A stretch of 24,660 bases of DNA from a virus. Its lineage: Duplodnaviria > Heunggongvirae > Uroviricota > Caudoviricetes. This document shows positions 21,001 to 24,000 of the stretch, piece by piece (position 1 is the first letter of the stretch; each line of letters opens with the position of its first letter). The position numbers were made by a program. The stretch lies in the IMG/VR virus record IMGVR_UViG_2534681934_000023, one strand, 5' to 3'.

Positions 21001-24000
21001 AGGAAAGGAATATGAGTTAAAGGTCATTGATGAAAAAACGCCTATTCTTTTTCAGTGGTTTGAACCTAATCCTGAACGATATAAGAAAGATGAGGTTCCA
21101 ATAGTTAATACTAAGCAGCATCCCTATTTAGATAATGTCACAAATGCGGCAAGGATAGAGAGTGATCGTATGATAGGTATTTTTGTTGATGGCGATTTTT
21201 CAGTCAACCAAAAGACTGCTTTTTCAAAATTGGAACGAGATTTTGAAAATGTAATGATAATCTATCGGGAAGATGTTGACTTCAGTATGTATGACAGAAA
21301 ACTATCAGATATTTATCATGATATTATATGTGAACAAAGGTTACGAACTGAAGACAAAAGAGATGAATACTTGTTGAATCTGTTAGAGAAAGAGCTGAGG
21401 GAAATTTCAAAGGCGCAGGATTCTTTGATTTCTATGTATGCAAAGAAAAGAAATCATGCATGGTTTGATTTCTTCAGAAATTTAGCCTTATTAAAAGCAG
21501 GAGAGATATTCAGGTGCACATATAATACAAAGAATCACGGTATTTCATTCGGGGAGGGGTGTATCTATCTTGATATGGATATGATACTTACAGGTAAGCT
21601 TGGTACAATATATGCTCCTGATGGAATTTCAATGCATGTGGATCGTCGTAATGATAGTGTAAATATTGAAAATAGTGCAATAATTGTTAACCGTAGTAAT
21701 CATCCTGCTCTACTTGAGGGACTTTCTTTTATGCATAGTAAAGTAGATGCTCATCCATATTATGATGGTTTGGGGAAAGGAGTTAAGAAATATTTTAATT
21801 TTACACCATTACATAATTATAATCATTTTTGTGACTTTATTGAGTTTAACCACCCTAATATAATCATGAACACAAGTCAGTATACATGCAGTTCATGGTA
21901 AATGAATTTGATATAGTTTATTTTGTTGTAATAAATGATTTGCAGGGTATTAGATATAAACATGAAAATTCCCTCATTACAGTCCAACTTCAACTTTTCC
22001 GCCCCGGCAGGATACTCTGCTCCCATTGCTCCTAATCGTGCTGAAAATGCCTATGCGGATTACGTTTTGGATATAGGTAAGCGAATACCACTTTCCGCAG
22101 CAGATTTAAGCAACGTATACGAAAGTGTAATACGCGCCGTCCATGACAGCCGTAGCAGGCTTATCGATCAGCATACAGTCGATATGATCGGCAACACTGT
22201 ACTTGATGCTTTGAGCCGATCACAGACATTTCGTGATGCCGTAAGCTATGGCATTCATAATGAGAAGGTACACATTGGTTGCATTAAATACAGAAACGAA
22301 TACGAGCTTAACGAAGAATCTTCTGTCAAAATTGATGATATTCAATCACTAACCTGTAACGAATTATATGAATATGATGTCGGGCAAGAGCCAATTTTCC
22401 CCATTTGCGAAGCAGGAGAAAACGATAACGAAGAGCCTTATGTCAGTTTTAGTGTTGCGCCAGATACTGACTCTTATGAGATGCCATCGTGGCAGGAAGG
22501 ACTGATTCACGAGATTATTCATCATGTTACTGGATCTAGCGATCCATCTGGAGATAGTAATATAGAGTTAGGACCCACCGAGATTCTCGCACGTCGTGTC
22601 GCTCAAGAACTGGGATGGAGTGTTCCCGACTTCAAAGGATATGCAGAGCCAGAACGTGAAGCTCATCTTAGGCTACGTAACCTGAATGCCCTTCGACAGG
22701 CTGCCATGAGGCATGAAGAGAATGAGAGGGCTTTCTTCGAAAGGCTGGGTACGATCAGTGACCGATATGAGGCGAGTCCTGATTTCACAGAGTATTCCGC
22801 TGTGTCTAACATAGGATACGGATTTATCCAGCAACATGATTTTCCTGGATTGGCTATCAACGATAATTTACAGGATGCAAATCAGATCCAACTGTATCAT
22901 GGCGCCCCTTATATTTTTACATTTGGGGATGTGGACAAACACAATCAGCAATGATTCGTCTTTGCAGTGACATAAGGTTACTATTCATACATTTTAACGG
23001 AGTTGATGATGGGTAATCGTGCAACATTGTATGTAAAGGCAATTCCCCTAATTTTACTGTAGTAAGTGAACATGGCCGGAACGAGACTATCAGCATCATC
23101 GGCTTCGGCCCAGTAAAAAGAGGCTCGGAAAAATGCACAATAGGCATCACACGTCATGCATGGATTCAAATTGTACATAATTCAACAGTACAGCTATAAA
23201 TCGTAAAGAAACTGCAGTACGTTGTGCACAGAAAAGTACCGTGATTCACTATTGTACAGGTCCATTGCAGCAACAATATTTTGTGAATTTTGCGTGAGAG
23301 AAAGAAAAGGAATAATTTGTATATAAACAATTGATTAATCAATTGCTGGAAAATAAATAAAACTGATAATTAAAGGCTTAAAGCTTGTATTAAATCATAT
23401 TTAAAATTTTTGTTTTAAATGCAGCGTGTTATTGTGTTTTTTTAATCTATCGGTCTGGTACTTGTAATCAGTGAGTATATCGCACCACTTCAGGATGCTG
23501 CAGATTTAGATATTGCGACGGATGAGCAGACATCGTTACTGGCGGCATGGAAGCAGTATCGTATGCCGCTCAATCATGTTGATACGTCTGTATCTCCAGA
23601 TATCGAGTGACCGGTAATACCTGCGTTATAGTTCGTAAACGTTCGTTTGATGGGATGCTGGAAGGATGAATTAGTTGCCAGATACAAAAAGCAAGAGTTC
23701 ATTTCTAATTTTTGTTGCCATGTTAGGGGGATGTTTGTTAAGGAAATTTAGATGGGTTTATTTTGAAGGTTGAAATGTATGTTATCGCCATATTCTGTAA
23801 ATTTGGGATGTTCATGGAATTCTTTAACCAGAAACCTGACTTCGCCTGATAATCGTGTTTTATCCTCTGTAAGGGATGCTGCCGTTCATTCTGATAATGG
23901 GGCGCAAGTAAAGGTTGGCAACAGAACATATCGTGTTGTTGCCACCGATAATAAGTTTTGCGTTACAAGAGAAAGTCATAGTGGTTGTTTTACTAATCTG

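Follow-up and report, generated by a model that had tools for sequence, protein, structure and literature searches.

A relic of a tail fibre assembly gene accompanies nleH1 in the effector locus of a lambdoid prophage

The window, a 24,660-nucleotide stretch of a Caudoviricetes record in IMG/VR (IMGVR_UViG_2534681934_000023), carries at 23455–23631, between the effector genes nleC and nleH1, the genuine 3′ end of a tail fibre assembly gene (tfa) of phage origin, now a dead stub. The relic is a non-coding pseudogene made up of the final 59 codons of a lambda-type tfa, and is an ordinary recombination scar. Very probably, the dead stub was carried along with nleH1 from an earlier phage and then decayed. 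The stub itself is already known: the NCBI pipeline correctly marks it as a pseudogene, RefSeq labels it as such in more than 300 O157:H7/O55:H7 genomes, and the type of locus that holds it, the exchangeable effector locus (EEL), has been described since 2006. The relic and its left edge were delimited as follows.

23455–23631, plus strand: tfa 3′ relic, corresponding to lambda Tfa residues 136–194 (Pfam, tblastn, alignments, and the PGAP pseudogene of L001).
23443–23454, plus strand: left breakpoint of the relic, a TAA (23443–23445) followed by three codons (23446–23454) that are not tfa-derived (alignments).

The stub gives a significant match to the Pfam family PF02413, Caudo_TAP (59.2 bits against a cut-off of 22.1, E = 5.9e-16), which covers profile positions 80–125 of 131 only. 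When the whole window was searched by tblastn with lambda Tfa, the check proposed in the preliminary description, residues 136–193 aligned to 23455–23628 with 67% identity (E = 6e-21). This was the single significant match (runner-up E = 4), so the window holds no intact tfa, in line with the earlier statement that none follows stf. The interval first assigned to the fragment, 23446–23610, does contain a tfa segment, but its first three codons are not tfa-derived and its terminal TGA is not the true end; homology spans 23455–23631, starting at 23455 by protein and at about 23469 by DNA. The TGA at 23608–23610 stands in place of a TGG tryptophan codon in lambda tfa, in the intact tfa of L051 and in other relics. 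Beyond it the homology runs for six further codons to the ancestral TAG stop at 23629–23631, which places the nonsense codon 7 codons ahead of the original end. Upstream, the frame is closed by the in-frame TAA and is start-less, as had been described: no open reading frame of at least 30 aa begins with ATG, GTG or TTG, and the sole in-frame ATG would give about 15 aa. A full-length Tfa has about 190 aa and a start codon; the stub represents residues 136–194 alone, and the TGG-to-TGA change leaves it without an intact C-terminus.

The reported location between two effector genes is likewise confirmed by the profiles of both neighbours, nleC being a Peptidase_M85 protein (384 bits).

23779–24660, plus strand: nleH1 (NCBIfam NleH equivalog, 551 bits against a cut-off of 450; PGAP nleH1-1).

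The gene order is J, lom, stf, an 89-aa open reading frame, nleB2, nleC and nleH1, continued past the window, in L001, by nleD, the lambda att core GCTTTTTTATACTAA and ybhB/bioA, so that type III secretion effector genes occupy the region between the tail fibre genes and attR. The stub does not directly follow a tail fibre gene: the 89-aa frame, nleB2, nleC and a captured chromosomal fragment, ykgJ′, separate it from stf, 3 kb upstream. On its left are two elements.

23297–23454, no strand assigned: A+T-rich block of 158 bp (GC ~27–30%), abutting the relic on its left and common only to 2B8-type cassette copies.
23065–23296, minus strand: captured chromosomal ykgJ′, flank of the prophage-borne attachment site attB-in-PP_2 (PGAP YkgJ pseudogene).

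A search for the source of the A+T-rich block found it with this cassette only. The ykgJ′ element has three parts: codons 1–38 of ykgJ (23065–23178), some 65 nt from upstream of that gene (ending near 23243), and 53 nt (23244–23296) that other effector loci also contain; from 23065 to ~23243 it is 85–88% identical to core-genome ykgJ and its upstream region in about 5000 genomes. In RM6927 the same ykgJ′ block directly adjoins another tfa relic. Phages are known to integrate at effector-locus attachment sites derived from ykgJ/ecpE, and a 184-bp ykgJ/ecpE flank stands right after nleC in several nleC-carrying prophages (PMC8112680); the window has such a flank on the left, of agreeing length.

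On the right, the stub is followed by the remains of a tail-operon end, of which the window also holds a live version.

23632–23712, plus strand: 82-nt remnant of what was the 3′ untranslated end of a tail operon, kept downstream of four relic types and of intact tfa.
23713–23739, plus strand: conserved 27-nt motif TGTTGCCATGTTAGGGGGATGTTTGTT, its 3′ end 40 nt ahead of the nleH1 ATG.
20759–20810, plus strand: live counterpart of this fossil junction, with an intact hairpin (20759–20783) and T-run and the 27-nt motif (20784–20810), 111 nt ahead of nleB2.

The terminator hairpin at ~23684–23713 is decayed: its A-run and T-run are retained and the G+C stem is gone, and folding gives −6.5 kcal/mol (z −1.2), against −17.5 (z −3.95) for the live copy and −18.2 in L012. 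The motif TGTTGCCATGTTAGGGGGATGTTTGTT occurs twice in the window, where none would be expected by chance, and precedes exactly nleB2 and nleH1; every copy in related loci lies on the plus strand, ahead of nleB2, nleH, NleG, EspM-like and nleC genes. It is likely to be a regulatory element of effector genes. Garcia-Angulo and colleagues reportedly described in 2012 an NRIR-type nle regulatory region, bearing a 13-bp inverted repeat, ahead of nleH1 and nleB2. TGTTGCCATGTTAGGGGGATGTTTGTT may belong to that region, but no inverted repeat was found within the motif. A review places the NRIR motif at nleB2 and, in its passage on the motif, names that gene alone.

The origin of the stub is best read from the company it keeps. 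The unit of relic, spacer and nleH stands behind full-length nleC here, behind truncated nleC in PK8241 and RM13516, and behind espM2 in phage 2B8; with such different left neighbours in different prophages, the stub belongs to the nleH cassette. Across the 34 IMG/VR nleH loci other than the window, nleH starts 109–174 nt past the 3′ end of the last fibre gene without exception: the full-length 89-aa fibre frame ends 109–112 nt before it in 19, and a tfa relic ends 151–174 nt before it in the other 15. Normally, then, nleH is the first cargo gene right after the last fibre gene of a lambdoid phage, parted from it by the tail-operon terminator and the conserved 27-nt motif alone. One phage lineage, the E. 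coli D1 type (L051, L056 and E. coli D1 itself), has the live order of stf (946 aa), intact tfa (193 aa, Caudo_TAP positions 1–130 of 131), the common spacer and nleH. Alignment to these prophages was contiguous over 23469–23818 at 82.8% identity. Given this live order and the positional pattern of nleH, the stub is very probably a positional fossil, imported with nleH1 behind nleB2–nleC and beside the captured ykgJ′ flank. In this only live tfa–nleH junction found, nleH is internally deleted, and none of the genomes examined had intact tfa adjoining intact nleH. The nearest intact Tfa proteins in the phage collection are just 69–71% identical to the stub, too distant to identify the actual donor lineage; a search with the reconstructed 58-aa peptide returned just three short database entries, all of them the relic itself, and not the donor Tfa. 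A search of species-representative genome contigs with NleH1 gave 0 relatives, a set that evidently lacks these prophages. As a rule, nleH lies 109–174 nt past the 3′ end of a fibre gene, whether intact or a stub, which accounts for the stubs that litter effector loci and marks cassettes that were once first in line.

We propose that a block of truncated tfa, spacer and nleH1, possibly with nleD, came from a D1-like phage and was placed behind the nleB2–nleC cargo of a prophage with a different fibre module, all donor sequence to the left of mid-tfa being lost. The likeliest route would be integration of the donor phage at the secondary attachment site of the locus, marked by the ykgJ′ flank, with an internal deletion afterwards; alternatively, two effector loci may have undergone illegitimate recombination. 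Signs of collapsed prophages are seen elsewhere, as an integrase fragment, a tfa relic of type D, the motif and nleG in one case, as an integrase pseudogene, a Phage_fiber_C relic and nleH1-2 in O26, and, in RM6927, as the ykgJ′ block set against a different tfa relic. Integration plus deletion is here a matter of inference, because no second att copy or direct repeat was found around nleH1–nleD (L001, 5900–9200), the right half of the ykgJ–ecpE spacer had no match there, and no integrase remnant lies beside this relic as it does beside others. A wider generalization, which we regard as doubtful, is that a tail-gene stub, a former terminator and the 27-nt motif regularly mark where each effector cassette here begins on its left, each stub recording one phage that integrated and then collapsed inside the effector locus of another prophage. 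If true, the series of stubs would offer a stratigraphy of how effectors were acquired. The decayed stub and terminator ahead of nleH1 might also have come to serve as a long regulated leader, linking that gene to signals from upstream.

The stub occupies positions −324 to −148 relative to nleH1. Expression of nleH1 falls stepwise with 531, 283 and 120 bp of upstream sequence, the 120-bp construct giving less than 25% of the 531-bp one (PMC3299786); the stub therefore lies within the stretch that full expression is reported to require. This location is probably why it survives, since deletions reaching further would harm nleH1 expression. A stronger claim is exaptation of the stub, as a 5′ leader or cis-regulatory element, either through transcription from the A+T-rich region across the relic and the decayed terminator into nleH1 or through binding of regulators (H-NS, Pch, GrlR) within the stub. 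Counted from the ATG at 23779, the step from 283 to 120 bp in those constructs drops 23496–23658, for the most part relic sequence; the live copy and type D keep the terminator stem that is decayed here between relic and nleH1; and relic plus spacer have diverged 2.8% from the 2B8 copy, the A+T-rich block 19%. However, the relic has diverged to the same extent as the 5′ two-thirds of nleH1 (~2%), and the apparent excess of conservation of relic plus spacer, measured against third codon positions of nleH (Fisher p = 0.009), vanishes when a clustered divergent patch in the 3′ part of nleH (24349–24537) is excluded, and was rejected as evidence of selection. Moreover, the type B relic is heavily altered and still stands ahead of an intact nleH, nleH genes that directly follow the 89-aa frame have no tfa sequence at all, and a scan of the nleC–nleH1 interval for sigma-70 promoters and terminators found nothing on the plus strand. 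For nleH2, 113 bp of upstream sequence are sufficient (PMC3299786). Exaptation seems unlikely, and any regulatory share of the stub itself, which the published constructs do not separate from that of its neighbours, is hypothetical. The stub alone is of little importance; what matters for reading promoter constructs is that debris of phage structural genes makes up most of the nleH1 upstream region defined by experiment.

The preliminary description had instead suggested a rearranged tail fibre module, in which an unrelated 89-aa frame had taken the place of tfa behind stf. Put as an explanation, the prophage's own stf–tfa would have been broken locally, tfa being truncated and a foreign 89-aa frame, nleB2 and nleC inserted between stf and the remnant. 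The genes concerned are the following.

19151–20473, plus strand: stf, side tail fibre gene of the resident prophage (domains phage_tail_N, Collagen and Phage_fiber_C).
20475–20744, plus strand: 89-aa tail fibre frame (Phage_fiber_C, phrog_576), the true last gene of the module.

The stub does lie downstream of stf on the same strand, and the near-identical phage_tail_N domain in both fibre types makes replacement of distal stf and 5′ tfa mechanistically possible. But the C-terminal domain of stf is Phage_fiber_C, and its conserved 89-aa partner comes next with an intact terminator behind it, as in the standard complete module. Far from being unrelated, the 89-aa frame is a full-length member of phrog_576 (E = 2e-60) and carries the same Phage_fiber_C domain as the stf C-terminus (Pfam E = 5e-36; 35% identity to that C-terminus). 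The frame is also annotated behind stf in four other prophages (L002, L003, L004 and L043), where, with stf and the terminator hairpin, it constitutes a conserved and complete alternative fibre module; nothing is therefore missing locally, and the window's own module gives no sign of tfa loss. The constant companion of the relic is nleH, not stf, and an identical left junction, A+T-rich block against truncated tfa, occurs in phage 2B8 behind espM2, so the truncation is older than the association with nleC. Movement of the truncated block as a unit is also already largely shown. Local break-up is accordingly very improbable: the fibre module is of a complete alternative type and not damaged, and the idea of rearrangement holds in the broad sense only, that the effector locus is a mosaic.

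Since its transfer with nleH1 the stub has decayed: a tryptophan codon became a stop, the terminator lost its stem, and substitutions accumulated without codon-position bias. The five differences from the 2B8 copy all fall at codon positions 1 or 2, with none at position 3, and the type B copy is heavily altered and carries indels. Having no start codon, a TGG-to-TGA change, no codon-position bias and indels in type B, the relic has no coding capacity and makes no protein. It is hardly credible that the stub codes for a small protein or for a small RNA of the Rfam IS009 family, even though a 53-aa "tail fiber assembly protein" (MGLVLVI..., P0001), from older annotations with an ATC "start" at 23449, stands in public protein sets for at least 1000 contigs and RF02111 matches 23386–23591 (E = 6e-17), as the protein model requires that ATC without a ribosome-binding site and terminates at the mutated tryptophan codon in a frame whose substitutions show no coding pattern, the IS009 match scores 77.5 bits against a gathering score of 117, and the segment is bracketed by neither promoter nor terminator. 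An IS009 sRNA gene (RF02111) was ruled out as a candidate, the consensus of that model being itself tfa coding sequence.

Among known systems, the attB-in-PP_2 system (PMC8112680) offers a matching flank from 23065 to ~23248, straight after nleC and followed by the right-end genes of an apparent second phage; here integrase, second att copy and intact second prophage are lacking, and the match in mechanism is inferred. Lambda Tfa (orf-194) and the PF02413 chaperones resemble the stub in their C-terminal 58 residues (67–69% identity), sharing the motifs APLQDAADL and DIEWP, but the stub lacks the N-terminal 135 residues, the start codon and a partner stf, and has a nonsense codon. In the phage "moron" organisation, which Juhala and colleagues are said to have described in 2000, a cargo gene with its own upstream control is likewise inserted past the late-operon terminator; here, however, the terminator ahead of the cargo has degenerated, and part of the structural gene before it came along. 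Finally, the locus occupies the same region of a lambda-like prophage, from the fibre genes to attR, as the EELs that Tobe et al. (2006, as cited in PMC8112680) described for lambdoid prophages, from which it does not differ; the stub is one component of such a locus, and the regularity of tail stubs at cassette borders refines the EEL picture and is not a new system.

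The stub between nleC and nleH1 is a 3′ fragment of a tail fibre assembly gene (tfa). Its translation in the preliminary description, which placed the fragment at 23446-23610, proved exact, with the frame closed upstream by an in-frame TAA at 23443-45. Pfam assigns the peptide to Caudo_TAP (E 5.9e-16) over profile positions 80-125 of 131. Searched with lambda Tfa, the whole window shows a single site, where residues 136-193 align to 23455-23628 at 67% identity (E 6e-21; second-ranked match, E 4). Codons 23446-23454 are T-rich and unrelated to tfa; protein alignment places the start of homology at 23455, and DNA alignment at 23469. 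In alignments, lambda tfa, an intact relative and other relics all have TGG (Trp) where the frame here is closed by TGA (23608-10), and tfa similarity carries on past this codon through PVIPAL up to a TAG at 23629-31; WPVIPAL is also the C-terminal end of a partial database protein. These homology limits set the relic at 23455-23631, a small correction to a sound observation. The NCBI pipeline labels it 'tail fiber assembly protein, incomplete, missing N-terminus', while older database records carry it as a 53-aa protein with an ATC start.

Nothing suggests a protein product from the relic. The ORF map and translation reveal no start codon, the frame stops where a Trp codon has mutated, and the five differences from the copy of the same cassette in phage 2B8 are confined to codon positions 1 and 2. 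Another relic, type B, contains indels. An RNA candidate, Rfam IS009 (RF02111) at 23386-23591, was rejected: it scores 77.5 bits, short of the family's gathering score of 117, and the consensus of the model is in essence tfa coding sequence, which means that its prophage matches largely re-detect tfa genes and stubs.

An ORF map and family searches identify the window as the late region of a lambda-like prophage.

Features surrounding the tfa relic
18498-19097: lom-like gene
19151-20473: stf, side tail fibre gene (domains phage_tail_N, Collagen, Phage_fiber_C)
20475-20744: 89-aa ORF
20921-21901: nleB2 (NleB family, 697 bits against a cut-off of 595)
21935-22954: nleC (Peptidase_M85, 384 bits)
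23065-23243, minus strand: ykgJ′, a short way to the left of the stub (codons 1-38 and ~65 nt upstream of the core gene ykgJ)
23455-23631: tfa relic
23779-24660: nleH1 (NleH equivalog, 551 bits against a cut-off of 450)

At least 336 complete O157:H7/O55:H7 genomes share 22955-23800 at 99.8% identity, and no match exceeds this value among the complete RefSeq genomes listed. In O157:H7 PV15-279, the locus extends into nleD and then ybhB-bioA, with the lambda att core GCTTTTTTATACTAA and a P arm resembling that of lambda just ahead of ybhB. We take the prophage to correspond to Sp3/CP-933K. For Sp3, excision, replication and packaging have all been reported impossible, and its host-specificity genes were scored intact (PMC2669165). 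The window has one T fewer than PV15-279 in each of two T-runs (23406 and 23436), which leaves the relic frame unaffected and may reflect either natural length variation of homopolymers or an error in sequencing. Separately, a large deletion in the same prophage of PV15-279 (2965-3790 of that locus) fuses a DUF1441 gene fragment straight to the stf 3′ end, taking out essentially all sequence that the window has between them.

The stub had been read as a sign that the tail fibre module was rearranged, with an unrelated ORF in the position of tfa. The rearrangement is not supported, and the ORF is not unrelated. The 89-aa ORF matches phrog_576 'tail fiber protein' over the full length of the family (E 2e-60), has a Phage_fiber_C domain (E 5e-36) and shares 35% identity with the stf C-terminal domain. 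A strong hairpin and T-run follow it (20759-20788, -17.5 kcal/mol, z -3.95), and stf with a 270-bp ORF is annotated likewise in PK8241, RM13516, phage 2B8 and RM6927. The pair makes up a complete, undamaged fibre module of a tfa-independent type, and the stub belongs to nleH. The ORF, a second Phage_fiber_C copy, begins one base past the stf stop codon, with its frame staying open upstream as far as 20343, across the final 130 nt of stf (20343-20473). It is a candidate for a separate tip or chaperone protein, or for an alternative C-terminus.

We surveyed 35 IMG/VR loci encoding NleH relatives for upstream tail-gene sequence; 34 include the nleH 5′ end. A full-length 89-aa fibre ORF ends 109-112 nt before the nleH ATG in 19 of the 34, and a tfa 3′ relic ends 151-174 nt before it in the other 15, leaving none of the 34 without either. 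In O26 strain 11368, an integrase pseudogene is followed by a 3′ relic of the 89-aa ORF and then nleH1-2. The rule is that nleH directly follows the last tail fibre gene at its 3′ end; that gene is intact where nleH comes first among the cargo genes, and a stub where nleH lies further in. The unit of relic, spacer and nleH stands behind differing left neighbours: full-length nleC in the window and espM2 in phage 2B8. For PK8241 (at bio) and RM13516 (at yodB/zinT) the left neighbour is a truncated nleC, and the relic fused to it is shorter.

The four relic types are all 3′-terminal, with left breakpoints at lambda Tfa residues 108, 136, 153 and 168. Each is followed by ~82 nt, a 27-nt motif (TGTTGYCATGT..GG.GATGTTTGTT) and an effector gene, either nleH, an EspM-like IpaB_EvcA protein or NleG. 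The 82 nt contain the tail-operon terminator, which has kept its full form behind the 89-aa ORF and in type D (-18.2 kcal/mol) and is decayed before nleH1 (-6.5 kcal/mol, z -1.2), where an A-run and a T-run alone remain. The motif occurs twice in the window, at 20784-20810 (111 nt before nleB2) and 23713-23739 (40 nt before nleH1), with none expected by chance. NleG, EspM-like and nleC genes of related loci have it in front of them as well, without any change of orientation. Activation of nleH1 and nleB2 reportedly requires a conserved sequence upstream of these genes (Garcia-Angulo et al. 2012), and the motif is a probable candidate for this published nle regulatory sequence. For nleB2, a review attests that it carries their 'NRIR' motif.

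The live ancestral arrangement is the tfa-spacer-nleH order of E. coli D1. A pattern search for the restored tfa end retrieved two contigs identical to D1 over the stretch searched. Besides J and lom, these loci have a lambda-type stf of 946 aa and an intact tfa of 193 aa (Caudo_TAP 1-130 of 131). After tfa come the spacer, motif, ribosome-binding site and start of nleH that the window also has, and 23469-23818 aligns to them unbroken at 82.8% identity. The one reservation is that nleH there is internally deleted, the equivalent of 23818 being joined to that of 24578. The deletion joins about codon 13 to the last 27 codons (gene at 8393-8505 in L051, one of the two contigs), and cif, an integrase fragment, a second tfa stub and nleG lie 3′ of it.

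Expression of nleH1::gfp drops stepwise as the upstream sequence is shortened from 531 to 283 and then to 120 bp, where it is <25% of that with 531 bp; tail fibre genes receive no mention (Holmes et al., PMC3299786). Assuming distances counted from the same ATG (23779), the construct ends map to 23248, 23496 and 23659. The stub spans -324 to -148 and is part of the DNA that matters for nleH1. Its divergence from the 2B8 copy (2.8%) equals that of the neighbouring nleH 5′ region, and this comparison reveals no special sequence constraint; nleH copies behind the 89-aa ORF lack any tfa sequence. The stub itself may contribute to nleH1 regulation, at a low probability. An apparent excess conservation over nleH third codon positions was discarded, being due to a clustered divergent patch: 21 of 31 O157-2B8 differences in nleH1 are packed into the 190-nt stretch 24349-24537, suggesting a recombination patch.

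The ykgJ′ flank offers a view of how the stub arrived. It is 85-88% identical to chromosomal ykgJ, and in other prophages the fragment (23065-23296, minus strand) is found after nleF, espM1 or espM2. Nakamura et al. described a ykgJ/ecpE-derived 184-bp flank beside a 96-bp secondary attachment site, 'attB-in-PP_2', located in effector loci, often beside nleC, into which lambda-like phages were shown to integrate (PMC8112680). In RM6927 (3854-4236 of its locus), espM2, ykgJ′ (up to what corresponds to 23296) and, abutting it, another tfa 3′ stub form the end of a prophage, directly before chromosomal potB. This stub, ending WPTSPVE, has another tfa lineage and breakpoint than the window relic, apparently making it a second, independent juxtaposition of flank and stub. 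An integrase fragment lies upstream of the type D relic (PHROG 1, E 6e-9; PGAP 'integrase' in PK8241), and with the RM6927 junction it fits a collapsed second phage. A phage carrying tfa and nleH1 would have integrated into an attB-in-PP_2-type site of the effector locus and then lost everything between its own left end and mid-tfa. Integration followed by deletion is the best-supported route, and for this copy a proposal. No second att copy or right half-site was found downstream of the relic and no integrase remnant beside it, and the A+T-rich 158 bp at the junction (23297-23454) have no match outside this cassette. Illegitimate recombination between effector loci is a possible alternative means of bringing the stub here; the left junction is identical in the 2B8 copy, so the truncation is older than the present neighbourhood. 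The stub is a positional fossil of the former nleH1-carrying phage. It already has a pseudogene annotation and is consistent with known effector-locus biology, and the ykgJ′ of the window matches the ykgJ/ecpE-derived flank of attB-in-PP_2 (PMC8112680).
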